From contig CACGMO010000005.1 in the NCBI GenBank assembly GCA_902574225.1, positions 4,736 to 68,735 of the forward strand: a stretch of DNA of 64,000 nucleotides, read 5' to 3'. Source of the DNA: an uncultured Alphaproteobacteria bacterium (GTDB lineage Bacteria > Pseudomonadota > Alphaproteobacteria > Rhodobacterales > Rhodobacteraceae). Of this stretch, positions 40,795 to 58,910 are shown piece by piece. The notes below the pieces were generated by a model. The model made no database searches. It saw only the letters and a list, made by a program, of their open reading frames with translations, and was not told the origin of the DNA. The stretch's first letter is position 1, and each line of letters opens with the position of its first letter. The translations under genes and the position numbers were made by a program.

Positions 40795-41673
40795 ATGGAC
40801 ATTGACAAAAAAGTTAATATTTTAGTTATTGGTGGCGCGGGCTTCGTAGGAAGCCATTTGTGTGAATCATTAATATCAAATAAAATATACAACGTGATAT
40901 CTATCGATAATTATTCTAGTGGAACGGTTGATAATCATACATCTGGCGTCACATATATTGAAGGAGATACCAGAACTTTAGATGAAGTTAACTTACCAAA
41001 ATTTGATTATGTTTATCATTTAGGGGAATATTCTAGAGTTGAAAATAGTCTAGAGCAAGTTGACCAAGTTATTGACAATAATATCGTAGGTTTAACCAAG
41101 GTTTTAAAGTTTTGTTATTTTTCGAATGCTAAATTAATTTATGCAGGTAGTAGTACTAAATTCGGTGATGATGGAAAAACAATTAACGAAACCCCTTATG
41201 CTCTCACCAAATGGATTAATACCGAATTGATTTATAATTACTGTACTTGGATGGATCTAGAGTTTTGTATCTCATATTTTTATAATGTATACGGTCCCCG
41301 TGAAAATGAGGACGGTAAATTTGCCACGGTATTGGGAATATTCAAACGCAGATATATTTTGGGACAGCCTATGCCAGTCGTTAGACCTGGCACTCAAAGA
41401 CGGAATTTTACACATGTTAATGATATTGTTTCCGGATTAATTCTTCTGTTAAAAGCTCCATCAGGAGATGGATATGGAATTGGAGCTGAGGAAGATTTTA
41501 GTATCATCGACATTGCAAAACTATTTTCAGAAAATATAGAATTACTACCCGCAAGAAAAGGCAATAGACTTGGTTCTTCTTTGGTGAATTCCAAAATTAA
41601 AGAGCTTGGTTGGAAGCAAAAACATCAATTGCGTGATTACATACATGATATAAAGCATAATTTGGAAAAATGA
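40795..41673 (+). CDS. NAD-dependent epimerase/dehydratase family protein (extended SDR)
   Basis: ILVIGGAGFVGSHL Rossmann motif, YALTK catalytic YxxxK. 292 aa. Substrate not assignable by eye. Confidence 0.75.
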   Translation: MDIDKKVNILVIGGAGFVGSHLCESLISNKIYNVISIDNYSSGTVDNHTSGVTYIEGDTRTLDEVNLPKFDYVYHLGEYSRVENSLEQVDQVIDNNIVGLTKVLKFCYFSNAKLIYAGSSTKFGDDGKTINETPYALTKWINTELIYNYCTWMDLEFCISYFYNVYGPRENEDGKFATVLGIFKRRYILGQPMPVVRPGTQRRNFTHVNDIVSGLILLLKAPSGDGYGIGAEEDFSIIDIAKLFSENIELLPARKGNRLGSSLVNSKIKELGWKQKHQLRDYIHDIKHNLEK

Positions 41674-42395
41674 TTGTACTAGTTTTAGCAGGAGGATTGG
41701 GGAAGCGTTTGAGGTCTGTTATTCAGGATGTACCAAAGCCCATGGCTCCAGTGGGCAAATATCCATTTCTTTATTTTGTATTATCTGAATTAGTATCGAG
41801 TCCCATAATTACAAAAATAGTAATTAGCGTTGGATATAAGTCAGAAAAAGTATCTAGCTACTTTGGCAGTCAGTTCAAAGGTATCCCTATAAAGTATTGT
41901 AAGGAAGTTAGCCCACTAGGCACTGGAGGTGCTATTAAAAATTTTGTGACTAACATGAAAATCAAAAGTCCCTTTTTTGTAAAAAACGGTGACACATTTT
42001 TTAAGTCTAATTATACCGATTTAAAGGTAGCGCAGGATTTGTTTAAGCCCAAAATAATCTTGGAAGCATGTAAAGTAGAAAAGTTAGATAGATATGGATC
42101 ATTAGAATTAGAGACTATTGATAGAAAAAGAAGATTAGCTCTGATATTAAAATTCAAAGAGAAAGATCAAAGCGCTAAAAATGGATATATAAATTCTGGT
42201 TGTTACCTCATGGACCCCCACATTTTTGATAAATATCCAAAAAGAAAATTTTCCCTCGAAGAGGATATACTTACCCCGTTTTCAATAGAGAGAGATATTT
42301 ATGCTATCAAGTCTAAAGAAAAAGAGTTTATAGATATTGGAATACCATCGGACTTTTACGCAGCGCAAAAATTACTACCAAAGTGGAGTCTTTAA
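41670..42395 (+). CDS. hddC: D-glycero-alpha-D-manno-heptose 1-phosphate guanylyltransferase-like nucleotidyltransferase
   Basis: MIVLVLAGGLGKRLRSVIQDVPKPMAPV...VISVGYKSEKVSSYFG matches the HddC pattern. Clustered with hddA/gmhA/gmhB homologs. Confidence 0.7.
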   Translation: MIVLVLAGGLGKRLRSVIQDVPKPMAPVGKYPFLYFVLSELVSSPIITKIVISVGYKSEKVSSYFGSQFKGIPIKYCKEVSPLGTGGAIKNFVTNMKIKSPFFVKNGDTFFKSNYTDLKVAQDLFKPKIILEACKVEKLDRYGSLELETIDRKRRLALILKFKEKDQSAKNGYINSGCYLMDPHIFDKYPKRKFSLEEDILTPFSIERDIYAIKSKEKEFIDIGIPSDFYAAQKLLPKWSL

Positions 42396-42396
42396 C

Positions 42397-43332
42397 ATGA
42401 AAAACATCTTGATTACTGGCGGGGCTGGTTACATTGGATCAGTGTTAACGGAAACTTTATTAAACAAAGGCTATAAGGTAACGGTTGTTGATCTCTTTGA
42501 CCAACTCGAAAGTTCGTTATCATATGCAGCGCAATACAAAAACTTTAGTGCAAAGAGACTAGATGTCCTTGATGCCAAGAAACTGAGAGAATTCTGCACG
42601 CCTTTTGACGTTATCATTCCTTTAGCCGCTCTCGTAGGCGCTCCTTTATGTGAAAGACACGAAGTTTTAGCAGAATTGATAAATTATAAAAGTATTGCAA
42701 ATATATTAGAAACAAAAAAAAGCGATCAATTAATTATTTACCCAAATACAAATAGTGGATACGGAAAAATGACTGATAATGAGGACTTTTGCACCGAAGA
42801 GAGTCCCCTTAACCCTATTTCAGTTTATGGTGAAACAAAGGTCCGAGCTGAAAAAGACATTATCAATAGCGGAGGAATTGCATTTCGTCTAGCTACAGTT
42901 TTTGGGAGTAGTTATAGGATGCGTACCGACTTGATGGTTAATGAGTTTGTGTATAAGGCAGTTAAAGAGAAGTGTGTCGTCTTGTTTGAGAGTCACTTCA
43001 GAAGAAACTTTATTCATGTAAGAGATGTTTGCAAAGCATTTATACATGCTATTGAAAACTCTTCTTCCATGAGTGGGGAAGTATACAACTTGGGTCTTTC
43101 GAGTGCCAATTATACAAAGAAACAACTTTGTTTAAAAATTAAAGAGCAAGTAAAAAGCTTCGTTATTATTGAAAATGACATTAGTCTGGATCCTGACAAG
43201 CGCGATTATCTGGTTAGCAATGAGAAATTAGAAGCAACAGGTTGGTCACCTGATCACAGCATAGAAAGTGGTATAGCAGAACTTATAAAATATTATGAAA
43301 CATTTGCACCAATTAAAACCGCAAACGTCTAA
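42397..43332 (+). CDS. NAD-dependent epimerase/dehydratase family protein (SDR) inside the heptose gene set
   Basis: ILITGGAGYIGSVL, YGETK (YxxxK). The ATG at 42397 lies right after the hddC stop. The track ORF begins at 42337. Confidence 0.75.
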   Translation: MKNILITGGAGYIGSVLTETLLNKGYKVTVVDLFDQLESSLSYAAQYKNFSAKRLDVLDAKKLREFCTPFDVIIPLAALVGAPLCERHEVLAELINYKSIANILETKKSDQLIIYPNTNSGYGKMTDNEDFCTEESPLNPISVYGETKVRAEKDIINSGGIAFRLATVFGSSYRMRTDLMVNEFVYKAVKEKCVVLFESHFRRNFIHVRDVCKAFIHAIENSSSMSGEVYNLGLSSANYTKKQLCLKIKEQVKSFVIIENDISLDPDKRDYLVSNEKLEATGWSPDHSIESGIAELIKYYETFAPIKTANV

Positions 43333-44325
43333 ATGAGTGGTGCTATGATTTTGTCTTCAGCCCCACTAAGAATTAGCTTTTTTGGTGGTGGAACAGACTA
43401 TCCCAGTTACTATAAGAAGTACGGTGGTAAGGTTATTTCAACTGCTATAGATAAATATGTGCACGTAATCCTAAAGAATAAAGCCCCTTTTAACGAAGAG
43501 AAATTCATTTTGTGCTATTCGTCCATTGAAAAGTGCAATTCAATAGATGAGATCAAACACCCTGGAATTCGAGCAACCCTTAGTTATCTCAAATTTCAAA
43601 AACCTTTAGAGATGCACATTATAGGCGATATTCCAGCAAAAACTGGATTGGGCTCATCATCTTGCTTTACGGTAGCTCTTCTGAAAGCTCTTTATACATA
43701 TATGGGTGAAAAAAGGAGCCAACGTGAGATTGCATTTGATGCGATGCGGATAGAACAAAGCTTAATGAATGATAATGTTGGCAGTCAAGATCAATATGCG
43801 TCGGCAATCGGTGATCTAAACGAAATCATTTTTGCTACTACTGGCGAAATTACCCACACTGCTCTGAATTTACCCTTGGAAATTGAAAGTGAGTTTTTTT
43901 CCTCTTTATATTTGTGCTTTACGGGCGTCAAACGATTAGCGTCAAATGTTGCTTTAGAACAAATCAATAAAATTGAGAATGGCTCCATAGATCAACAGAC
44001 ACATGAGCTTTCACAAATAGCAAAAGCTGCTCTGGTTGCCTTAAAAAACCATAATCTTCACGAGTTTGCTCACCTTTTAAATGAAACATGGAAAGTAAAA
44101 CGACTGTTAACTAATAAAATCTCAAATAAAGAAATTGATGAAATATACGAGCATGGGATCAACTGTGGTGCAACTGGAGGAAAATTATTAGGCGCAGGCG
44201 GTGGAGGCTTCTTTTTGTTTTTCGTTCCAATCTCAAAAAAACTAGAATTTGAGACAAGTTACCGCGCAGGAACCTTTCTTCAAGTAAATAAATGCAAAAA
44301 AGGTGTAGTGGCCAAATTAATATAG
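43333..44325 (+). CDS. hddA: D-glycero-alpha-D-manno-heptose 7-phosphate kinase-like GHMP kinase
   Basis: SAPLRISFFGGGTDYPSYY, GHMP motif PAKTGLGSSSCFTVAL, GAGGGGFFLFF. 330 aa. Confidence 0.75.
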   Translation: MSGAMILSSAPLRISFFGGGTDYPSYYKKYGGKVISTAIDKYVHVILKNKAPFNEEKFILCYSSIEKCNSIDEIKHPGIRATLSYLKFQKPLEMHIIGDIPAKTGLGSSSCFTVALLKALYTYMGEKRSQREIAFDAMRIEQSLMNDNVGSQDQYASAIGDLNEIIFATTGEITHTALNLPLEIESEFFSSLYLCFTGVKRLASNVALEQINKIENGSIDQQTHELSQIAKAALVALKNHNLHEFAHLLNETWKVKRLLTNKISNKEIDEIYEHGINCGATGGKLLGAGGGGFFLFFVPISKKLEFETSYRAGTFLQVNKCKKGVVAKLI

Positions 44326-44361
44326 TTATTTTAGAATTATGATGAAAGTTAACTTTTAGAA

Positions 44362-45354
44362 ATGAAAATTCTACTTCTCAATAGAGGTTTTAATGATTAC
44401 TTAGCTGATGGAGTATTTCATGGGTTCCGAACAATGTTTGGAAGTGATGTTATTGATTATCCAAGATGTGACTGGATGTATGAAGATTTTTCCGAAGTTG
44501 ATAAATTACATGGTAAAGGATTTTCATTATACAGAACGTTGAAATCCATAAAAATTGATAGATACAATATTTATGAAAAGGTAAGAAATAGCTACTTTGA
44601 CCTAATAGTTTTTGGAAGTATTCATGATACATTTGGAACATACTTTCAGTTGTTTCCCTATCTAAAAAAAAATAGTGTCATTTTTTTAGATGGTAACGAC
44701 CACCCTGCACCATTCCCCTTCCACGGTTATTTTTGGAGAACCTTCAGAAATCTTTGTGTACCAAAAGTAAGTAACAACTTTTTATATTTTAAACGAGAAT
44801 GGACACCGGAAACAACTTTTTACAGATATTACAAGGTTATGCCAAAGTCTATCTTAAATTATCTGCCGAACCTAGCAAACTATAGAAAAATAAATTTCGG
44901 CTTTCCATCTGAAAAAATTATAAAGGTTCTACCTAAGAAATCGAAATTATTCAATACGCATATCGTAGACCCTGAAGTTAAGCAAAATATAAAGGGAGCA
45001 AGCCTTGACTATGCATTTGCTGCAGAAAAAGATTATTACAATGATCTTAAGGCTTCAAAATTTGGTATAACGACTAAGAAAGGAGGTTGGGATTGCATGC
45101 GCCACTATGAAATTGCAGCTAATGGAACAGTTCCATGTTTCAGAGATTTGGATAAAAAACCAGATAGCTGTGCTCCACATGGGTTCGATAGTACAAATTC
45201 GATCACCTACAGCTCTTACCACGATCTTTTAGGAAAAATATCTTCTATATCAGATGAAGAGTATGCTTCATTACAATCCGGAGCACTAAAATGGATTAAA
45301 GGTCAAACCACGGTGAACATAGCAAAAAAAATATTAAAGGAGCAAGGCATTTAG
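44362..45354 (+). CDS. Hypothetical protein, possible GT-B/exostosin-like glycosyltransferase
   Basis: No family recognised with certainty. The C-terminal SKFGITTKKGGWDCMRHYEIAANGTVPCF resembles the exostosin/GT-B motif S.F.L.P.G....R..EA...G.IP. Confidence 0.35.
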   Translation: MKILLLNRGFNDYLADGVFHGFRTMFGSDVIDYPRCDWMYEDFSEVDKLHGKGFSLYRTLKSIKIDRYNIYEKVRNSYFDLIVFGSIHDTFGTYFQLFPYLKKNSVIFLDGNDHPAPFPFHGYFWRTFRNLCVPKVSNNFLYFKREWTPETTFYRYYKVMPKSILNYLPNLANYRKINFGFPSEKIIKVLPKKSKLFNTHIVDPEVKQNIKGASLDYAFAAEKDYYNDLKASKFGITTKKGGWDCMRHYEIAANGTVPCFRDLDKKPDSCAPHGFDSTNSITYSSYHDLLGKISSISDEEYASLQSGALKWIKGQTTVNIAKKILKEQGI

Positions 45355-45426
45355 CTTTTAAATCTGTAAATTTTTTTGAACTTAAAACGAAGAAAAATTT
45401 TATTTTTCGAAAGTTGAAATTATTAT

Positions 45427-46005
45427 ATGATTATCAAATTGAATGATACTATTCCTTTGAAGGGGAAAAAATTTATCTTCCTTGACAGAGACGGCACTAT
45501 AAATGTCGAAAGAAACTATTTGTATGAAATTTCAAAATTCGAATTCGAGTATAAAGCTGTGGAGGGTCTGATATCTCTTGCAAGCCAAGATTTCAATTTA
45601 ATTATTATAACCAATCAATCTGGTATCGGACGCGGGTATTACACAATCAAAGACTTCACCATGTTACAATCGTACATTATCAGAAAGTGTTCTAGTTATG
45701 GGGTTGAATTTCTGGGTTATGTTGCATGTCCGCACTATAAGGAGAATTGTGAATGTAGAAAGCCAAAAGACGGCATGTTGCGTGCTATTCAGGAACGCTT
45801 TGAAATTGATAAAGAGTATTCTTGGATCGTTGGCGATAAAGTCTCAGATACAGAAACAGGACGATCACTAGGGTACCAGTCCTGCTTATTAGGTACCGGC
45901 CATGGTAAAAATAATTTTGAACATAAATCTGATAATACATACTTTGTTAAAAATTTGAGTGAATTTGCTAATTTGGTTAGGAAAACAAATGAAAGACTTT
46001 ATTAA
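45427..46005 (+). CDS. gmhB: D,D-heptose 1,7-bisphosphate phosphatase
   Basis: HAD motif FLDRDGTIN, TNQSGIGRGY, Zn-finger insert CPHYKENCECRKP, GDKVSD. 192 aa. Confidence 0.88.
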   Translation: MIIKLNDTIPLKGKKFIFLDRDGTINVERNYLYEISKFEFEYKAVEGLISLASQDFNLIIITNQSGIGRGYYTIKDFTMLQSYIIRKCSSYGVEFLGYVACPHYKENCECRKPKDGMLRAIQERFEIDKEYSWIVGDKVSDTETGRSLGYQSCLLGTGHGKNNFEHKSDNTYFVKNLSEFANLVRKTNERLY

Positions 46006-46561
46006 CAAAATAAACGCACACCATGATGCTCTTTCAAGGCTTAAAGATGATCTCGAGCTTCAGGAAACTCTCCATGATTTGATAGATAAAATAGTACTAG
46101 CTTTAAGTAAAGATAATAAATTAATGATTTGCGGTAATGGAGGCTCGGCTGCTGATGCGCAACATATGGCGGCAGAGTTTATTGGAAGATTTGCATTCGA
46201 TAGTCGTCCTCTACCAGCTCTTACTCTGACAAGCGATACTTCTACTATTACCTGTATAGCCAATGATTATAAATTTGAAGATATCTTTAAACGCCAGATC
46301 GAGGGATTAGGAAGAGAAGGCGACATAATTCTAGGTATTTCAACTAGCGGTGCCTCTGAAAACATTCTACGTGCTCTTGAAAAGGCAAGAGATATGAATA
46401 TCACAACAGCTATTTTGACAAGCACTAAGGCAAATTTAGAGAAATTAATTTGCAACTATGCAATTAAAGTCGAAGCTTCAAATACTGCAACAATACAAGA
46501 AATGCATCTAATTATCGAACACTATATATGCGAACAGGTTGAACTTAGGCTCTGTGGATAA
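45989..46561 (+). CDS. gmhA: Phosphoheptose (sedoheptulose-7-phosphate) isomerase
   Basis: SIS domain with GNGGSAADAQHMAAEF, GISTSGASENI. The ATG at 45989 overlaps the gmhB end. The track ORF begins at 45959. Confidence 0.9.
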   Translation: MKDFINKINAHHDALSRLKDDLELQETLHDLIDKIVLALSKDNKLMICGNGGSAADAQHMAAEFIGRFAFDSRPLPALTLTSDTSTITCIANDYKFEDIFKRQIEGLGREGDIILGISTSGASENILRALEKARDMNITTAILTSTKANLEKLICNYAIKVEASNTATIQEMHLIIEHYICEQVELRLCG

Positions 46562-47975
46562 AATAATTAAAAGCAACTCAAAACGCATTTTGGTAATTGG
46601 AGATGTGATGTTAGATCATAACGTCATTGGAGATGTAACTCGGATAAGCCCCGAAGCTCCTGTTCCAATTTTCAATAGCTTTAAGGAGACTTTTAAACTT
46701 GGCGGAGCAGCTAATGTTGCCGCAGGAATTAAAAAATTAGGGTGTGATACTGATATATATTTTGACGCCGCGAAAGATGATGGAACTCCGGAGTTAACAA
46801 AATCTCTGAAAAAGTTGGGGATAGGTTTCAAACTGATCCAAAGTAAACAAATAACCACAATTAAACGTCGATTTTTTGTTGGTTCACAACAGGTTTTTAG
46901 ATCAGATAATGAAATCTATAGTCCGGTTCAGTCTTCAACCATTTTAAATAATATTAAAAAAGACTATAGAAATAATTTGCCCGAGTTATGTGTTTTATCT
47001 GATTACTCAAAAGGAGTCCTTTCTGACAGTGAGAACATTATTGCTGGTTTACGGCAACTTGGGGTTAAATCAATAGTGGATCCCAAAAGCTCAAAAATTC
47101 AAAAATACAAAGGCGCATGGATTTTGAAACCAAACTGGAAAGAATTCAATGCGTTTTTTAAACAAGATATTGAGATAAATAATTTACCTCATTTTGGAAA
47201 AAAAATGTGCGAAGATAATGATATTGAAAATCTGATAATCACTTTGGGTTCAAAAGGCATTTTTTATATTAATAAATCGGGTTCTACTTTTCATATAGAG
47301 ACAAAAGCCAAGGAGGTTTTTGATGTTACAGGAGCAGGAGATACTGTAATTGCCACTGTAGCTTATTTTATCAATCAGGGAATAAGCATACCTCAATCAA
47401 TTGAATTGGCAAATTATGCTGCCTCCTTCACAGTGGCAAATATAGGCACTTATAATGTAACTTTAGAAGAAATAAGATTAAAGGCTGAAAAAGGGAGTAT
47501 AAGAGAAAAGACTTTTTCAAAAATTACTGATCTTATTGAGTCAATTAGGGCAAAAGGAAGAAAGATAGTGTTTACAAATGGCTGTTTTGATATATTACAT
47601 CCTGGCCACATTGACATTTTAAATTTTTGTAAAAAACAAGGAGATTTTGTAGTAGTTGGTCTTAATTCAGATAAGTCTGTTAAAGAAATTAAAGGTCAGA
47701 ACAGGCCGATAAATAGTTTTCAGATTAGAAAAAAGCTTTTACAGAACTTAAGGGCTGTTGATCTTGTTGTTGAATTTGACAGTAAGACTCCTCTTGAATT
47801 AATTAAAAATATTAAGCCCGATATTTTAATTAAGGGAGGCGATTATAAAGTTGATGAAGTGGTGGGAGCAGATTTTGTAAATAGTTACGGAGGCGAAATT
47901 ATTATATTTGAATTTGTCAATAATACCTCGACCACTAAAGAGCTGGCAAAAATCAGGAAACTTGGAGATGATTAA
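46539..47975 (+). CDS. hldE: Bifunctional D-beta-D-heptose 7-phosphate kinase / D-beta-D-heptose 1-phosphate adenylyltransferase
   Basis: Ribokinase-like N-domain (ILVIGDVMLD, TGAGDTV) fused to a cytidylyltransferase-like C-domain (FTNGCFDILHPGHIDIL). 478 aa. TTG at 46539 or GTG at 46554 is the start. Confidence 0.88.
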   Translation: MNLGSVDKIIKSNSKRILVIGDVMLDHNVIGDVTRISPEAPVPIFNSFKETFKLGGAANVAAGIKKLGCDTDIYFDAAKDDGTPELTKSLKKLGIGFKLIQSKQITTIKRRFFVGSQQVFRSDNEIYSPVQSSTILNNIKKDYRNNLPELCVLSDYSKGVLSDSENIIAGLRQLGVKSIVDPKSSKIQKYKGAWILKPNWKEFNAFFKQDIEINNLPHFGKKMCEDNDIENLIITLGSKGIFYINKSGSTFHIETKAKEVFDVTGAGDTVIATVAYFINQGISIPQSIELANYAASFTVANIGTYNVTLEEIRLKAEKGSIREKTFSKITDLIESIRAKGRKIVFTNGCFDILHPGHIDILNFCKKQGDFVVVGLNSDKSVKEIKGQNRPINSFQIRKKLLQNLRAVDLVVEFDSKTPLELIKNIKPDILIKGGDYKVDEVVGADFVNSYGGEIIIFEFVNNTSTTKELAKIRKLGDD

Positions 47976-48201
47976 GATTGATATAGAAGTTGTAGAATAC
48001 GCTATTTTTGAGTCACTCAAAAAAGAACACTTAAAAGATGTAAATTTTATTTCTTTAGAATTACATTACATCGGTGTCACTAACGCTATGAAGAGTTTTA
48101 AATCGAAACTCTATTCTTTTGGAAATAGATTTCTTGTAAAACCAGATAGCTGGGGACGATCTGGTTTAGGACAATTATGGGCAAGAAAGGACGATTGTTG
48201 A
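47968..48201 (+). pseudogene. Possible remnant of an FkbM-family methyltransferase (C-terminal fragment only, 77 codons)
   Basis: MIKIDIEVVEYAIFESLKKEHLKDVNFISLELH resembles the FkbM C-terminal block (LKIDIEGAE..VL.G....I..I.IE.H). There is no SAM-binding N-domain. It overlaps the hldE stop and the next gene's start. Confidence 0.35.
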
Positions 48202-49103
48202 AAATCCTTGTTACAGGTGCAAGTGGCTTTTTAGGGCAAGCATTTGTTGAAAAAGCAAAGTTGAAAAACCTTGATATTTTTGCTCCTTCATCAAAGGATT
48301 TGAATTTACTGCATCCAATAAGACCTGATATGATAGGAAAAAAATTTGATGTTATAATACATTTCGCCAGTTGGACAAGAGCAGGAGATTTTTGTAGAAC
48401 ACATAAATTAGAACAATGGCTTGTGAATGAAAAAATAAATCTAAATATTATTGATTATTGGGTTAATTATCAGAGGGAAGCGCATCTTATAAGTTTTGGG
48501 ACTAGTGTTTGCTACAACGATGATGACACGGTAAAATTGGAAAAAAATTATTTAAAAAATGACCCTATTGATGATTATTATGGTTACTCTACAACAAAAA
48601 GATCACTTATTTATGGTATCAAATGTGCCTCTCAGCAGTTTTCTTTAAGTTTTTCTCACTATGTGCCATCAACCATATATGGACCAGGCTATCATCTTGA
48701 TGGACGCCAGATGCACTTTGTTTATGATATAATACGTAAATTAGTGATTGCTAAGAAAGAAAATCGCGAAGTTGTTTTGTGGGGCAATGGATATCAGGAG
48801 CGAGAACTTATCTTTATCGATGATGTAACAGATATTCTTTTCAGGTCGTTGTCAAGTCCGACCAATCAAATCATTAATTTGTCTTCTGGGAGAGGCTTTA
48901 CAATCCGAGAGCTAGCCAATTCAATTTGTGAAATTATTAATTTCCCTCCCTCAGATATTAGCTATGATACTGACGCCTTTACTGGATTTAAATCAAAAAT
49001 ACTGTCAAATACAATTCTTGACGATATCTTTCCTGATCGGAAAAAAACTGATCTAGTATCTGGTTTGCGTCCCACTATAAAGTGGGTGAGTGAGAACTTT
49101 TAG
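48177..49103 (+). CDS. GDP-4-keto-6-deoxy-sugar epimerase/reductase family protein (GDP-L-fucose synthase-like SDR)
   Basis: ILVTGASGFLG, SSKDLNLLHP, YGYSTTK, VVLWGNGYQERELIFIDDV parallel E. coli Fcl/WcaG blocks. 308 aa. Confidence 0.75.
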   Translation: MGKKGRLLKILVTGASGFLGQAFVEKAKLKNLDIFAPSSKDLNLLHPIRPDMIGKKFDVIIHFASWTRAGDFCRTHKLEQWLVNEKINLNIIDYWVNYQREAHLISFGTSVCYNDDDTVKLEKNYLKNDPIDDYYGYSTTKRSLIYGIKCASQQFSLSFSHYVPSTIYGPGYHLDGRQMHFVYDIIRKLVIAKKENREVVLWGNGYQERELIFIDDVTDILFRSLSSPTNQIINLSSGRGFTIRELANSICEIINFPPSDISYDTDAFTGFKSKILSNTILDDIFPDRKKTDLVSGLRPTIKWVSENF

Positions 49104-49119
49104 ATGAGAGGATTTAGTT

Positions 49120-49689
49120 ATGTTTTACAAAGATCATAGTTGGAGTGAATTTGCTAAAAGTTATTTAAGAACATTTGGCCAAGAAGTACCAATTTATCAA
49201 CCTGCGGTCTTCAGAGAATTTAGGGGTGAAATTTTTACAACTTTTCATGACAAATATCATCCAGCAATGTCCAAAATTGGAAAAACAGATAATACTCATG
49301 TAAGATTTTCTAACTCTCGAGCTGGCGTTTTACGGGGATTACATTATGACTTTTCAACTTGGAAACTTGTTCAAGCTCTTGTAGGAGAGATATACCTCGT
49401 TGTCTTAGATATGCGAAAAAAGTCGGCAACCTACGGAAAATGGGAACACTACTTGCTGTCAAACAAAACGCGGGATCAAGTGCTTATTCCTCCAGGGTTT
49501 GCAAACGGTCACTTAGCCCTGGAGGAATGTATCTTTCACTATATTCTATTCTACAAGGGCAAATATACCGATGAGAAAAAACAAGGTGTGGTCGCTTACA
49601 ATGATCCACGTTACTCTATCCAGTGGCCTGATACAAATTTCATAGTTCAAGAAAGAGATAAGACAACATCCGAAATCAATAACAGCTAG
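49120..49689 (+). CDS. RmlC-like cupin sugar-nucleotide 3,5-epimerase
   Basis: FRGEIFTTF, RGLHYD, KLVQALVGEIYLVVLDMRK, IPPGFANGH match the dTDP-4-dehydrorhamnose 3,5-epimerase fold family. 189 aa. Confidence 0.8.
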   Translation: MFYKDHSWSEFAKSYLRTFGQEVPIYQPAVFREFRGEIFTTFHDKYHPAMSKIGKTDNTHVRFSNSRAGVLRGLHYDFSTWKLVQALVGEIYLVVLDMRKKSATYGKWEHYLLSNKTRDQVLIPPGFANGHLALEECIFHYILFYKGKYTDEKKQGVVAYNDPRYSIQWPDTNFIVQERDKTTSEINNS

Positions 49690-49722
49690 TATTCTAAAAA
49701 GAGTAATAAGGAAAAATTTGAT

Positions 49723-50676
49723 ATGAAAATACTAATTACCGGTGGAAATGGATTCCTAGGAAAGAGATTGGGAAAAGCACTGCACGATCGAAAGCATCAG
49801 GTGACATTAGCATCCCGTAACAATAAAAATAATCTTCTTGCTTCACAAATGACGGGATGTCAGGTCTTGGCGATGGATATCACTTCAATAGAATCTGTTA
49901 GGGATATAGTGAACCAAACTGAACCAGATTTAATAATTCACGGAGCGGCAACAAAATTTGTTGACATAGCTGAGAAACAACCCCTGGAAACAATTGATGT
50001 TAACGTAATTGGGTCTCAAAATATTGCAAGAGTAGCAATTGACAAAGGTATATCTTCTGTCATCGGAATATCAACTGACAAGGCGTCGCCTCCGGTACGG
50101 AACATATACGGGATGTCCAAATCTTTAATGGAACGTTTATATTGTGGGCTTAATGGGAGAGGAGGTGTTCAGTTTGCCTGCGTACGATACGGAAACGTAG
50201 CATGGTCAACCGGTTCAGTATTAAGTATATGGAGAAAAATGGTAAAGGAAAAGATGGAGATTGGGACTACGGGACCCGAAATGTATAGATATTTTTTTAC
50301 CGTTAATGAAGCAGTTGATCTGGTAATTACTGCAATTGAGAATATACATGAGATAGCTGGAAAAGTTCTAAGTCGTGAAATGAAAGCAGCACAGCTCAAA
50401 GATATAATTTCTGTTTGGATGGAGTCTGACAAAAGAATTTCTGTGAAGAGTTTGCCTGAAAGGCCTGGGGAAAGAATAGAAGAATACTTAATCGGTGAAG
50501 AAGAGCTTTCAAAAACATATTCTAAAAGATTTAATGGAATTGAACACTATATTTTTAATTTCAACACTGACGTTGAGAACCCTGTTCAGGAAGTACACAC
50601 TTCAAGAACTGCAATCAAATTAACTAATGAAGAAATTTTAAATATAATAAATAACCCTCCCACAGAAGAACTATAA
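49723..50676 (+). CDS. Polysacc_synt_2 (CapD/PseB/FlaA1-like) nucleotide-sugar 4,6-dehydratase
   Basis: ILITGGNGFLGKRL, STDKASPPVRNIYGMSKSLMERL, VRYGNVAWSTGSV parallel H. pylori FlaA1/PseB blocks. 317 aa. Confidence 0.75.
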   Translation: MKILITGGNGFLGKRLGKALHDRKHQVTLASRNNKNNLLASQMTGCQVLAMDITSIESVRDIVNQTEPDLIIHGAATKFVDIAEKQPLETIDVNVIGSQNIARVAIDKGISSVIGISTDKASPPVRNIYGMSKSLMERLYCGLNGRGGVQFACVRYGNVAWSTGSVLSIWRKMVKEKMEIGTTGPEMYRYFFTVNEAVDLVITAIENIHEIAGKVLSREMKAAQLKDIISVWMESDKRISVKSLPERPGERIEEYLIGEEELSKTYSKRFNGIEHYIFNFNTDVENPVQEVHTSRTAIKLTNEEILNIINNPPTEEL

Positions 50677-51341
50677 TGTTCAAAAATGCTTTAATTATGG
50701 CAGCAGGTAGAGGTAATCGTATGAGACCTCTTACAGATGTGACTCCGAAAGCACTTGCACCACTAAAGGGTAGCACTCTGATTGAGCAAACTATCGATAA
50801 ACTACATAAAGAAGGTATTTCAACACACGTTACGGTTGGGTATCTTGGAAATATAATTGCCGAGACTCTAATTAGAAAAAACATAGTTTCTTCCATAATC
50901 AATACTGATGGATACGATAACGGATGGTGGATTTTCAACACACTTATTAGTAAAATCAATGAACCAATACTCGTTATGACCTGCGATAATGTTACGGACC
51001 TAGATCTAGATTTCATGCAGAGTGAATATAGCAGATTGAACGCACCTGCATGTATGTTAGTTGGTGTTGAACCAATAATAGGAGTAGAAGGTGACCTAAT
51101 AGAGCATAAAGATAATTTGGTTACAAATATTTCTCGTAATAATTCTGGGAAGACATATGCTTCAGGAATACAAGTTATTAATCCTGTTTCTTGTAACATG
51201 CTTATTAAGAATTCAGAAAATTTTTCATTGATTTGGTCGCAATTAATTGAAAAAAACCAATTATATGTGACAAATATTTATAAAAGGTCTTGGTTCTCAA
51301 TTGATACACTAGACCAATTGGTCAAACGTAATGAAGAGTAA
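50676..51341 (+). CDS. Sugar-phosphate nucleotidyltransferase (specificity unknown)
   Basis: IMAAGRGNRMRPLTDVTPKALAPL G-rich NTP-transferase motif. 221 aa. TAATG overlap with the upstream gene. Confidence 0.75.
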   Translation: MFKNALIMAAGRGNRMRPLTDVTPKALAPLKGSTLIEQTIDKLHKEGISTHVTVGYLGNIIAETLIRKNIVSSIINTDGYDNGWWIFNTLISKINEPILVMTCDNVTDLDLDFMQSEYSRLNAPACMLVGVEPIIGVEGDLIEHKDNLVTNISRNNSGKTYASGIQVINPVSCNMLIKNSENFSLIWSQLIEKNQLYVTNIYKRSWFSIDTLDQLVKRNEE

Positions 51342-52491
51342 CAATCTAGTTATTATAAGTGAACAAGCCTATCAACAAATTAACCGTAAAATATACGATC
51401 TTCTTAAAAAGAAGGTTCTAAAATTGAAAATAGTAATTCCATATGACTCGTCTATGGCCCCACCATCTAAACTAGAATCTATGTACATACCTCGCCCAAT
51501 AAAGAATTATCACCCACGAAAAAGCTTTAGCTTGTTACCAAAAAAAAATTTCTTATTGAATTCAAAGGTTGACTCCATTTTGTTAGAAAGTGATTTTCAT
51601 ACGCTGACATGTCTGCAAGTGCTTTTTTTTAAAGTATTATTAAAAAGAAAATATAAAGTGTCTTTACTTACATTTGAAAATATAAAGAAAGACTATCTCT
51701 TACTTGCTGTTGATGATCTTAGAAATTTTAAGTTAAAGAGAAGTACGCTACATTACTTCATGTATCTTATGGAAAGGTTTCTAGGAAGGTATATTGACAA
51801 TATTTTTACAGTCTCAAAAGACAGTACATTAATCTATAAACAAAAGTTTAAGCTTTCAAAAATTTGTCAAATTCCATTAGGTATAGACAGTGATCGATTT
51901 AATATGAAGAACCGTCAGAAAACTCATGGATTAGTAACGCTAGCATATATGGGCAGAGTAATTAAAGAAAAAAACCCACACTTAGTGCTAGATGCGTTTG
52001 AACGGCTATCAGCAGATTTCAAAAATATTTGTTTGATATTTCAAGACCCAATTCGATATGATAGTGATTACGCTAAATGCATTGAAAAAAAATTAAACAA
52101 ATTAAAGCAAAAAGGATTAGCAATTAAAGTAGTTAATCCCTCCCATATAGAAATGCCACACCACCTAAAGCAAGTTGATATTTTGATTACACCCTCTACA
52201 GAAACAGAGCTATTCAAGGAACAATATGGCCGAATTATTGTAGAAGGTAAGCTTTGCGGTGCTATTGTGCTAAGTAGTTACTCAGGTGCATTTCCAGAAA
52301 TAAATGGCTTTTACGATCAACTGTTTAAACCAACACCCAAAGACCTCTATAATAGAGTGAAAGAATTTATAAAGCTGAAAATTAACAACCCAGATAAATT
52401 TGCAGCACGGATTGAGAAGTCCTACAAACATGCTGTAAGCAAACAAACGTTAAAACCTCAGCTAATAAGATACATTGAAAATTTAGTATAA
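51331..52491 (+). CDS. Glycosyltransferase, GT-B fold (GT4-like)
   Basis: C-terminal E-x7-E region (TPSTETELFKEQYGRIIVEGKLCGAIVLSS). 386 aa. Confidence 0.7.
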   Translation: MKSNNLVIISEQAYQQINRKIYDLLKKKVLKLKIVIPYDSSMAPPSKLESMYIPRPIKNYHPRKSFSLLPKKNFLLNSKVDSILLESDFHTLTCLQVLFFKVLLKRKYKVSLLTFENIKKDYLLLAVDDLRNFKLKRSTLHYFMYLMERFLGRYIDNIFTVSKDSTLIYKQKFKLSKICQIPLGIDSDRFNMKNRQKTHGLVTLAYMGRVIKEKNPHLVLDAFERLSADFKNICLIFQDPIRYDSDYAKCIEKKLNKLKQKGLAIKVVNPSHIEMPHHLKQVDILITPSTETELFKEQYGRIIVEGKLCGAIVLSSYSGAFPEINGFYDQLFKPTPKDLYNRVKEFIKLKINNPDKFAARIEKSYKHAVSKQTLKPQLIRYIENLV

Positions 52492-56868: not shown

Positions 56869-57873
56869 ATGGCCACTGCCTTTTTTTCATTAATCTTGCT
56901 TTCTAAAATAGCGGTAATTTCATCCGCAAAAATAGGCTTTGCATTTCTACTTAATTATTCTGCGGTAGCATTGTCAGCTTTAAGCCTTGGTTCCCGTTTG
57001 CCAAAACGCATCGTAATAGTGTGTATTTTTTCTCTACTATTTTTGATCGGAGGGCAATACAAAGCAGCTTTTTCATGTTTGCTGCTAATAGGGATAGCAA
57101 AAGTATATGCCTCTTTTATAAGTGTAAAGTCAAAAAATAGATCAAAAATTTTATTATTTTTGATGATTTTTTCTATTATAACGCTGGATCTGCAAACATT
57201 TTTAACTGGGAATTTTGCAAGTACATACGGTAGAAACCAGGTACTATTCGGCATTTTTCATCCTAAGGAACAAGCTATATTTATAGTATTTTCATACTTG
57301 ACATTCTTCGTAATTCCAAGAAAGGGAAAACTCAGCTTTCTTGGTTTCTCTATCGTTGCGGCACTACTTTATATCACTGATGCTCGAGTTCACCTTTACT
57401 CTTTTTTAGTTTTCGGCTTTGTTTATCTAGTCGGGTATCGAACTGTATTCTTATTATTTTTAATACCGATCTTCATTTCACCTCTTCTAATTTACATTAT
57501 TTTTGAAAACTGGGAATTGTTAAATAGTTTCAGTTCCGAAAGACTTCGTTTATGGCGGGACATTATCGTGATTGGTTACTCGGTTGGAGCCAATTCTATT
57601 GATTCTTCTTGGCTTGAATTTGGTCGGAATAATGTTGTGAATTTTTTTATCGCTGTCCCTTTTCTTTTTGCCTTTTTCTTGATAACTGCAATAAATATTT
57701 TGAGAACTCCTGATAATAAATTTTTTGGGGCCATGTTTATTTACTTCCTTTTGAGTAATACAACTGATCTCGGAGCTTTCTCAAGCACTAACATGATATC
57801 AATGATTTTCTGGGCAACATATCTTTATCCATCAAGCTTTAACTTCAAAAGACGATCAATAGCTGAGAAATAA
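56869..57873 (+). CDS. O-antigen polymerase/ligase-like polytopic membrane protein (Wzy-like)
   Basis: About 10 predicted TM segments and no soluble domain. Position among the GTs. The ATG at 56869 (MATAFFSLILL) lies just after the upstream stop. The track ORF begins at 56824. Confidence 0.5.
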   Translation: MATAFFSLILLSKIAVISSAKIGFAFLLNYSAVALSALSLGSRLPKRIVIVCIFSLLFLIGGQYKAAFSCLLLIGIAKVYASFISVKSKNRSKILLFLMIFSIITLDLQTFLTGNFASTYGRNQVLFGIFHPKEQAIFIVFSYLTFFVIPRKGKLSFLGFSIVAALLYITDARVHLYSFLVFGFVYLVGYRTVFLLFLIPIFISPLLIYIIFENWELLNSFSSERLRLWRDIIVIGYSVGANSIDSSWLEFGRNNVVNFFIAVPFLFAFFLITAINILRTPDNKFFGAMFIYFLLSNTTDLGAFSSTNMISMIFWATYLYPSSFNFKRRSIAEK

Positions 57874-58910
57874 CTTTTTTCTATTTCAGCCCGACTTAAT
57901 AACTTTGAATTGTCGCCAATTTTAATTGATGGCTCAGGCGAAATACTAATACTGTTGTGAACAGGATGAGTGAATTTAGAAAAAGTTGGCCCAGTAACTA
58001 CAATGGAATTAACCCCAAAAAGAGAACATAGATGGGATGGACCGCTATCCAGACAAATGAGGGCATCAATTTTTTTTAAATTATCTAAAAAATCCTCAAA
58101 GTTATCTTTTAAAATCTTAACATTACTTAACTGTTCGTAGCAATCTTCATCTATCTCACTCAACCAGATACCATCATCAAATATAATGATGGTCTTATTG
58201 GAATATTCTCGCGTGAAATGCCCTAAAATAGCGTTTTTCTGGTTTTTTGACAGCTGTCGATTTTTCTGGGACGCTCCCAGGTGAATCCCTAAATTTTCAA
58301 TCGACTTATTTTCCTTTTTTTTGGGTGCTGATAATTTTATGTAATCTGCATAATTGAGGTTTTTTTTAAATATTTTTCCAATTTGAAAGTTGTAGAAGTT
58401 CAAATGCTTCCGACAACCATCGTCAGGAATTATGTATGTCAGAAAATTTTTACCGGCTGTAAAATTGTACCCGATACAATTAGTGGCTTTTAAAAAGTGT
58501 CCAAATAAAATATTTCTCACATCTCCCCTATTCTCTAAAAATATATCTATATTTAATTTTCGAATATACTTTATTAATTTTATGAGAGATTTGAGTTTTT
58601 TAAAGTCAAGCAAACCTTGGTTTATCCAAGGAGGAATAAACTCTATAAATTCAATCTGGGTAACTCCCAGAGCACGCATTATAGGTTTGGCAAATGGTCT
58701 GGCAAGAAATATAATTCGCTTAGAGGGAAACTCCTTCTTTAAAAAGATACACAATTGTAGGCTAAGTGTAATATCTCCGATTAAATGTGACTCAAAAATT
58801 AATATTTTATTGCATTCTATGATTTTAGGTGCTTTTTTAGGCTTCTTTATCGGTATTGTTAATAAATCAAATAGAGTGTAGATGATTTTAAACTGTTTAA
58901 TAGGTTTCAT
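57825..58910 (-). CDS. Glycosyltransferase family 9 (heptosyltransferase-like)
   Basis: ILIFESHLIGDITLSL N-terminal and LDSGPSHLCSLFGVNSIVVTGPT C-terminal motifs typical of GT9. It is the only minus-strand biosynthetic gene in the locus (the RfaH-like regulator at the left edge is also on the minus strand). Confidence 0.8.
   Translation of the reverse strand: MKPIKQFKIIYTLFDLLTIPIKKPKKAPKIIECNKILIFESHLIGDITLSLQLCIFLKKEFPSKRIIFLARPFAKPIMRALGVTQIEFIEFIPPWINQGLLDFKKLKSLIKLIKYIRKLNIDIFLENRGDVRNILFGHFLKATNCIGYNFTAGKNFLTYIIPDDGCRKHLNFYNFQIGKIFKKNLNYADYIKLSAPKKKENKSIENLGIHLGASQKNRQLSKNQKNAILGHFTREYSNKTIIIFDDGIWLSEIDEDCYEQLSNVKILKDNFEDFLDNLKKIDALICLDSGPSHLCSLFGVNSIVVTGPTFSKFTHPVHNSISISPEPSIKIGDNSKLLSRAEIEKSYFSAIDRLLKLKLDG

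Follow-up and report, generated by a model that had tools for sequence, protein, structure and literature searches.

GDP-heptose clusters of Burkholderia pseudomallei (wcbL/wcbM/wcbN/gmhA), Yersinia pseudotuberculosis (6-deoxy-heptose) and Aneurinibacillus thermoaerophilus set a GHMP heptokinase and HddC beside GmhA and GmhB and contain no HldE; the ADP route of these organisms is encoded elsewhere. Helicobacter pylori HP0857-0860 represents the other type, ordered gmhA-hldE-hldD-gmhB. Campylobacter jejuni NCTC 11168 has both: its capsule module comprises Cj1423 (HddC), Cj1424 (GmhA), Cj1425 (HddA), the C4-dehydrogenase Cj1427, the 3,5-epimerase Cj1430 and the C4-reductase Cj1428, and its lipooligosaccharide (LOS) cluster reads gmhA-hldE-hldD-gmhB. 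The capsule route uses the GmhB of the LOS cluster, so that one GmhB serves both routes (PMC10680097), and there is precedent for GmhB, and also GmhA, being common to the two (PMC10680097; PMC4691232). Kuenenia is a further single organism that makes ADP- and GDP-heptose, for lipopolysaccharide (LPS) and S-layer glycan (bioRxiv 10.64898/2026.04.20.719630). Here we analyse a 64,000-nt stretch of DNA from an uncultured alphaproteobacterium (GenBank assembly GCA_902574225.1, contig CACGMO010000005.1, positions 4,736 to 68,735 of the forward strand; hereafter the window), in which predicted HddA, HddC and HldE genes lie in one string with gmhA and gmhB. A single gene string that unites the two routes is a rare arrangement, built from enzymes that all belong to known families. 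The novelty lies in the merged arrangement only; dual ADP/GDP activation and GmhB sharing are already known from C. jejuni and Kuenenia.

A preliminary description of the window, made from the sequence alone, had placed HddC, HddA, GmhB, GmhA and HldE in one co-directional string. All five open reading frames (ORFs) are intact on the + strand, and their best-matching families agree with these assignments (Table 1). The string is compact, with reading frames that overlap or nearly touch: intergenic distances from 40795 to 52491 range from -25 to +72 nt, gmhB and gmhA overlap by 17 nt, and gmhA and hldE by 23 nt. A 274-nt gap lies upstream of the first gene. Promoter and terminator scans found no terminator-like sites between string genes on the + strand, their counts being at or below shuffle expectation and thus usable only as a lack of evidence for internal terminators. 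The genes may be co-transcribed. Each heptose gene occurs once within the window, and hldE sits 2.2 kb from hddA. Between 40.8 and 49.7 kb the string corresponds to an ordinary GDP-heptose cassette in which hldE follows immediately on gmhB-gmhA.

Table 1. Heptose genes of the string, the candidate heptosyltransferase gene and other features of the window.
Feature	Coordinates	Strand	Evidence
HddC-like guanylyltransferase	41670-42395	+	NF049965 173.6 bits; PDB 6jq8/5xhw
Cj1427-like C4-dehydrogenase (SDR)	42394-43332	+	PDB 6vo6/6vo8, 348 bits
HddA-like GHMP heptose-7-P 1-kinase (alpha anomer, predicted)	43333-44325	+	NF049969 155.4 bits; WcbL 4usk
GmhB heptose-1,7-bisphosphate 7-phosphatase	45427-46005	+	NF006506 154 bits; E. 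coli GmhB 3l8e
GmhA sedoheptulose-7-P isomerase	45989-46561	+	TIGR00441 177.7 bits; 2xbl
Bifunctional HldE, heptose-7-P kinase (beta) and heptose-1-P adenylyltransferase (predicted)	46539-47975	+	PRK11316 429 bits
GDP-L-fucose-synthase-like (Fcl-like) SDR, probable GDP-4-keto-heptose C4-reductase	48177-49103	+	NF047922 92 bits
RmlC-fold GDP-4-keto-heptose 3,5-epimerase-like cupin	49120-49689	+	C. jejuni heptose epimerases
GT9 heptosyltransferase-type glycosyltransferase	57825-58910	-	PF01075; AF2 fold; Foldseek
SDR epimerase/dehydratase, 292 aa, first of string	40795-41673	+	Pfam Epimerase 134 bits
330-aa protein, between hddA and gmhB	44362-45354	+	only RXYLT1_C, E=0.098
77-aa ORF, fills hldE-reductase gap	47968-48201	+	annotated protein in source record
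PseB/FnlA-like 4,6-dehydratase-type SDR (317 aa), then MurU-like nucleotidyltransferase (221 aa)	49723-51341	+	1-nt overlap
Island sugar-nucleotide genes: CpsG-like phosphomannomutase, Ugd, GalU, ManC, Gmd		+	
Other island genes: several GT1/GT2/GT4 transferases, YdjC-like protein, multi-pass membrane protein		+	

The HldE reading frame is full length, predicts a bifunctional enzyme and retains the motifs of both the kinase and the adenylyltransferase. Residues 13-474 align with positions 9-473 of the 475 in PRK11316, end to end, and the two domains are matched by PF00294 (residues 15-306) and PF01467 (residues 345-439). The whole protein scores 429 bits against a cut-off of 521 and domain I 271.6 against 345, while domain II passes its model (TIGR02199) with 192 against 181.5. 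Among proteins of known structure, Burkholderia cenocepacia HldA (4e84, 7.6e-42) and HldC (5x9q, 1e-31) are matched. The motifs DVTGAGD, CFDILHPGH and STT are intact; DVTGAGDTVIATVA, FTNGCFDILHPGH and STT line up with HldA 4e84 and HldC 5x9q, including the GAGD anion-hole/catalytic Asp and HxGH. The GC and GC3 contents are even across the string (0.331 and 0.257 for hldE), and thus give no compositional sign of a recent insertion. A TARA contig from an independent sample (L102) crosses gmhB-gmhA into hldE at 99.3% identity, indicating that the junction is not an assembly or binning chimera.

Among 5.8 billion proteins no relative of the window HldE exceeds 43% identity, whereas the window MurA has an 89% match, which fits an accessory island gene. 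Because HldE lacks a close relative, the data also suggest that the host lineage is normally without an ADP-heptose route. A scan of genome contigs with HldE yielded nothing closer than remote loci from Planctomycetes and archaea. The representative of the 90% cluster that contains the window HldE (P0549/P0550), a 46-aa fragment, was rejected as a relative and attributed to a clustering artefact; the P0550 fragment lies on a 468-kb eukaryote-like contig with Ig, fn3 and tyrosine-phosphatase genes. This cluster artefact had masked the window HldE in the homolog search.

The GDP branch rests on two proteins for which the preliminary description had proposed heptose substrates. Both favour heptose families over galactokinase (GalK), fucokinase and glucose-1-phosphate transferases in NCBIfam and PDB comparisons. 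With this result and the intact HldE motifs, every refuting outcome named in the preliminary description failed to appear, and its interpretation is supported. The HddC-like protein scores 173.6 bits with NF049965 (HddC) against 104.5 for the runner-up family, below the equivalog cut-off of 300. Its nearest structure is Y. pseudotuberculosis HddC (6jq8/5xhw; 4e-32, 38% identity); it matches PF00483 (NTP_transferase) with 83.8 bits and keeps the LAGGLGxRL motif. The HddA-like kinase scores 155.4 bits with NF049969, short of the equivalog cut-off of 600; the mevalonate kinase (86.5), fucokinase (82) and galactokinase (70) models follow at a distance. Its best PDB match is WcbL (4usk; 5e-36, 32% identity), 4n3o and 3k85 are also matched, and the top four PDB proteins are all heptokinases. 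PF00288 and PF08544 both match, and the motifs TGLGSSS and GAGGGGF are present. Thousands of metagenomic proteins share 40-49% identity with the kinase, which falls into a separate subfamily.

Mutagenesis of WcbL showed R13, D22, S118-120, Q162 and D163 to be essential, activity being abolished (PMC4691232). These seven residues align with R13, D22, S108-110, Q152 and D153 of the HddA-like kinase, and the positions are invariant in an alignment of HddA-like proteins (A1).

Three further genes of the string were overlooked in the preliminary description and form a Campylobacter-type GDP-heptose tailoring set of dehydrogenase, cupin and reductase. The gene between hddC and hddA encodes an SDR that matches Cj1427 (6VO6/6VO8) over residues 3-304 at 2.6e-103 and 348 bits, with the runner-up in the PDB at 4e-17. 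For the cupin, the top structures are the C. jejuni heptose 3,5-/3-epimerases 7an4, 7ang, 8dco and 7m14 (~1e-35), with dTDP-type RmlC at ~1e-21. The Fcl-like SDR matches GDP-fucose synthases in the PDB at 1e-23 and has an ortholog, 45% identical, inside another HddA/Cj1427-like cassette (L002). By homology, the GDP branch is a full Campylobacter-type route of synthesis, C4 oxidation, C3/C5 epimerisation and C4 reduction. The predicted product is a modified heptose, probably a stereoisomer rather than plain D,D-manno-heptose.

The two enzymes that would be shared carry the signatures of their families. GmhB keeps the DRDGT, TNQSG, CPH..CxCRKP and GDK motifs; its best structural match is E. coli GmhB (3l8e, 6e-26), and HAD-IIIA and histidinol-phosphatase domain models pass. 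GmhA reaches 177.7 bits with TIGR00441, under the cut-off of 209, and its best PDB match is B. pseudomallei GmhA (2xbl, 4e-44, 41% identity), a protein of the SIS fold. It conserves AADAQHxxxE and IQExHxxxxH, whose His/Glu and Gln/His positions we take to be zinc/catalytic ligands. The window GmhA shares 41-52% identity with GmhAs from HddA loci and 43-44% with those that accompany HldE; these values do not indicate the route from which it descends.

To place the arrangement, we surveyed 80 metagenomic loci around the HddA-like genes of alignment A1, whose flanks add up to 731 kb (39 loci extend 2 kb or more to either side, and 25 extend 4 kb or more), by tblastn with the window proteins at E <= 1e-8. 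HddC-like genes were found in ~45 of the 80 loci, Cj1427-like genes (43-59% identity) in ~27, GmhA and GmhB in 13 each, and a heptose-epimerase-like gene in 10. HldE was found in none (0/80), which bears out the earlier statement that separate loci are the norm. A typical order is that of L030, with Cj1427-like, HddC, GmhB, GmhA, HddA and Fcl-like genes. Eight full-length HldE loci (L003-L006, L016-L019) are, in turn, without HddA and HddC; ADP-type orders are gmhA-hldE-SDR-gmhB (L018) and hldE-gmhA-gmhB (L003-L006).

An ADP-heptose made by the string could be used within the same polysaccharide island. The preliminary description had pointed to the GT9 enzyme encoded at 57825-58910, and family and fold agree with this assignment. 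PF01075 matches the protein with 26.4 bits, just over the gathering score of 22, and a sequence search of the PDB with it gave no match. In an exhaustive search, PF01075 was matched by 49 of 50 aligned homologs (best 2.3e-33). An AF2 model built with the homolog alignment has a pLDDT of 93.6, and Foldseek ranks 1-9 in the PDB are all WaaC, WaaF or other GT9 enzymes (3e-15 to 5e-12), followed by a match at 2e-8. Judged by homology and the modelled fold, this enzyme is a likely ADP-heptose consumer.

The preliminary description had recognised no HldD, and none is apparent from profile scores: the best SDRs reach 86, 77.5 and 70 bits against the TIGR02197 cut-off of 274.6, and no SDR within the 64-kb window attains the TIGR02197 or PRK11150 cut-off. 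The value of 77.5 bits belongs to the first gene of the string, which was thus rejected as HldD; its best PDB matches are GalE and UDP-GlcA 4-epimerases, and HldD follows only at 1e-10 to 1e-12. No WaaC or WaaF of canonical type was found within the window either. In the absence of HldD here, the island, if it uses ADP-heptose, would probably use the D,D form, except if the genome encodes HldD outside the window.

These observations are best explained by a GDP-heptose cassette that includes hldE, with two activated heptoses feeding the island glycan; we put the probability of this reading at roughly 0.55. In the scheme that we envisage, GmhA would convert sedoheptulose-7-phosphate to the 7-phosphate of D-glycero-D-manno-heptose, from which the HddA-like kinase would form the alpha-1,7-bisphosphate and the kinase domain of HldE the beta-1,7-bisphosphate. 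A single GmhB would strip the 7-phosphate from both anomers. HddC, the Cj1427-like dehydrogenase, the cupin and the Fcl-like reductase would then yield a modified GDP-heptose stereoisomer, following Campylobacter capsule logic, and the adenylyltransferase domain of HldE would yield ADP-D,D-heptose for the island GT9 enzyme. The island glycan would hold two kinds of heptose. What the sequences show is which genes are present and in what order, the conserved residues, the rarity of the arrangement and the GT9 membership, whereas the enzyme activities, a GmhB for both anomers, co-transcription and the pairing of transferases with donors are inferred. The fully integrated form of this scheme, a dual-nucleotide operon in which one GmhA and a bispecific GmhB feed a tailored GDP branch and an ADP branch towards a glycan with two heptoses, is more tentative, and we rate its chances at a little under even.

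Several findings count against the two-heptose reading. All whole-protein scores fall below the NCBIfam equivalog cut-offs, and only domain II of HldE passes, so that specificities, including the nucleotide used by HddC, are extrapolated from homologs at 32-46% identity. GmhB fits the beta-type model (NF006506, 154 bits against a cut-off of 178) somewhat better than the alpha-type one (NF050049, 129 against 250). The GT9 gene lies 10 kb off on the opposite strand, and its product has K, D, L and S at residues 330, 333, 338 and 346 in place of the four cysteines that form a C-terminal Cys4 motif in 46 of 50 relatives; the cysteines are retained in both of the nearest homologs, which are 46% and 44% identical. 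A second gmhA or gmhB, hldD or core heptosyltransferases may sit outside the window. Finally, hldE may vary among strains. In TARA sample SAMEA6009172 one contig (L001) stops at window position 46499 and another (L103) begins at 48359, the flanks thus being separate contigs, and the stretch left unassembled comprises exactly hldE, the small ORF behind it and the first part of the reductase gene. Such breaks to either side of hldE would be compatible with a variable hldE in the population, although they are only a hint.

The points that concern GT9 bear on a different division of labour, in which the island merely houses the only gmhA-gmhB-hldE set of the genome. HldE would then supply ADP-heptose to the LPS inner core through heptosyltransferases, and perhaps an HldD, encoded elsewhere, and only the GDP branch would serve the island. 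The three genes do often travel together as an LPS-core supply operon, as in L018 and L003-L006, and the sharing of the LOS-cluster GmhB with the capsule route in C. jejuni provides a parallel; the divergence of the island GT9 and its position on the other strand point the same way. Yet a GT9 enzyme is encoded within the same island, the 64-kb window holds no canonical HldD, WaaC or WaaF, and the contrast between HldE (at most 43% identical to any homolog) and MurA (89%) suggests an accessory rather than a lineage-wide core gene. We regard a supply to the core as less probable, though with an appreciable chance. The loss of the Cys4 motif, together with the assembly failure over exactly the hldE segment, could also mean that hldE is a passenger of a gmhB-gmhA-hldE block recruited as a source of GmhA and GmhB for the GDP cassette, making ADP-heptose without a dedicated use, or else a gene in decay or of variable occurrence within the population. 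None of the 80 HddA-like cassettes needs HldE, and the 77-aa ORF at the hldE 3' junction is unexplained. Against either reading stand an HldE that is full length, has intact motifs and is translationally coupled to gmhA, GC and GC3 values like those of its neighbours, and the recurrence of the gmhA-hldE junction in a second sample at 99.3% identity; a passenger or decaying hldE is improbable.

The low profile scores leave room for one more possibility, namely that the GHMP kinase and its partner nucleotidyltransferase have a sugar other than heptose as substrate, so that the ADP route would be the only heptose route of the string. Both score far under the equivalog cut-offs (155/600 and 174/300), and NCBI labels relatives of the kinase merely 'kinase'. 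Heptose families are nevertheless best by a wide margin, and the WcbL residues D22 and Q162, which bind heptose, and D163, which binds heptose/phosphate, are conserved. The kinase subfamily is also repeatedly flanked by GmhA, GmhB and Cj1427-like genes, and in the window the flanking SDR matches Cj1427, a GDP-heptose C4-dehydrogenase, with 348 bits. A non-heptose substrate thus appears very improbable, and we retain the reading in which a GDP-heptose cassette with an added hldE feeds two heptoses into the island glycan.

Two ORFs of the string are without assigned function. The 330-aa protein between hddA and gmhB matches no Pfam or NCBIfam family and was not found in the 80 HddA-like loci; it is 99% conserved in the TARA contigs L001 and L101. 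Its single-sequence AF2 model (pLDDT 37.6) is unusable. It may be a GT-B type glycosyltransferase. The start codon (ATG) of the 77-aa ORF overlaps the hldE stop codon, and its 3' end overlaps the next start. It gave no tblastn match in any fetched locus, and its resemblance to an FkbM methyltransferase C-terminus (E=0.13) is not significant; a reading of the ORF as what is left of a methyltransferase gene at a recombination seam is not supported.

Related TARA contigs differ from the window at two further places. L101 (TARA_SAMEA6047393 scaffold_49376) lacks ~96 nt of the 5' part of gmhB relative to window positions 45484-45589. The deletion removes the DRDGT nucleophile motif, and the called GmhB has 160 aa instead of 192; either a faulty assembly or an inactivated allele could account for this. 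L001, a 98-99% match, has a ~95-nt break at window positions 41242-41338, within the first SDR gene of the string, with a called product of 194 aa, which suggests that the cassette's 5' edge is mosaic or varies among strains.

Downstream of the cupin gene, a MurU-like nucleotidyltransferase gene overlaps that of a PseB/FnlA-like SDR. The pair suggests an additional nucleotide-sugar branch within the heptose string. The surrounding polysaccharide island runs on the + strand from 34.6 kb to the window end.

The window is marine alphaproteobacterial DNA with a GC content of ~35%. The top model for its NuoF is NF010120 (PRK13596, 798 bits), which we take to be an alphaproteobacterial-type NuoF model, and the protein matched by its MurA at 89% identity is labelled Paracoccaceae bacterium. 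Several TARA Oceans contigs match the region at 98-99% identity. The host is probably a pelagic, Paracoccaceae-related alphaproteobacterium. Genes for Campylobacter-style heptose tailoring are present in abundant open-ocean bacteria, whose surface-glycan islands are thought to shape interactions with phages and grazers. If both branches work, the string would serve as a naturally occurring, compact template for the production of GDP- and ADP-heptoses from sedoheptulose-7-phosphate with one isomerase and one phosphatase, and a GmhB that handles both anomers would be implied. It offers no new enzyme family or mechanism; known parts stand in an unusual arrangement.

Among known systems, Kuenenia is comparable at the metabolite level, at which the evidence for its two heptoses lies; as far as we found, no merged operon has been reported there. 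The gmhB-gmhA-hldE block resembles H. pylori HP0857-0860 and L018 in the adjacency of the three genes and in a bifunctional HldE of ~475 aa. Operons of this type include an HldD-type SDR but lack HddA and HddC, whereas the window block is embedded in a GDP-heptose cassette. With B. pseudomallei, Y. pseudotuberculosis and A. thermoaerophilus the window shares a GHMP heptokinase and HddC beside GmhA and GmhB; those three clusters tailor by a 4,6-dehydratase (6-deoxy route), in contrast to the Cj1427-type C4-dehydrogenase of the window. The closest parallel in enzyme content is C. jejuni, which has the same enzyme set for both routes and the same logic of C4 oxidation, C3/C5 epimerisation and C4 reduction. 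C. jejuni structures are among the best PDB matches of the window SDR, cupin and kinase, and identities of window proteins to characterised enzymes are 32-46% where computed. The difference lies in the arrangement: C. jejuni keeps its routes in two loci with a duplicated gmhA and an HldD, whereas the window combines them in a single string, with gmhA and gmhB present once each and HldD missing from the 64 kb.

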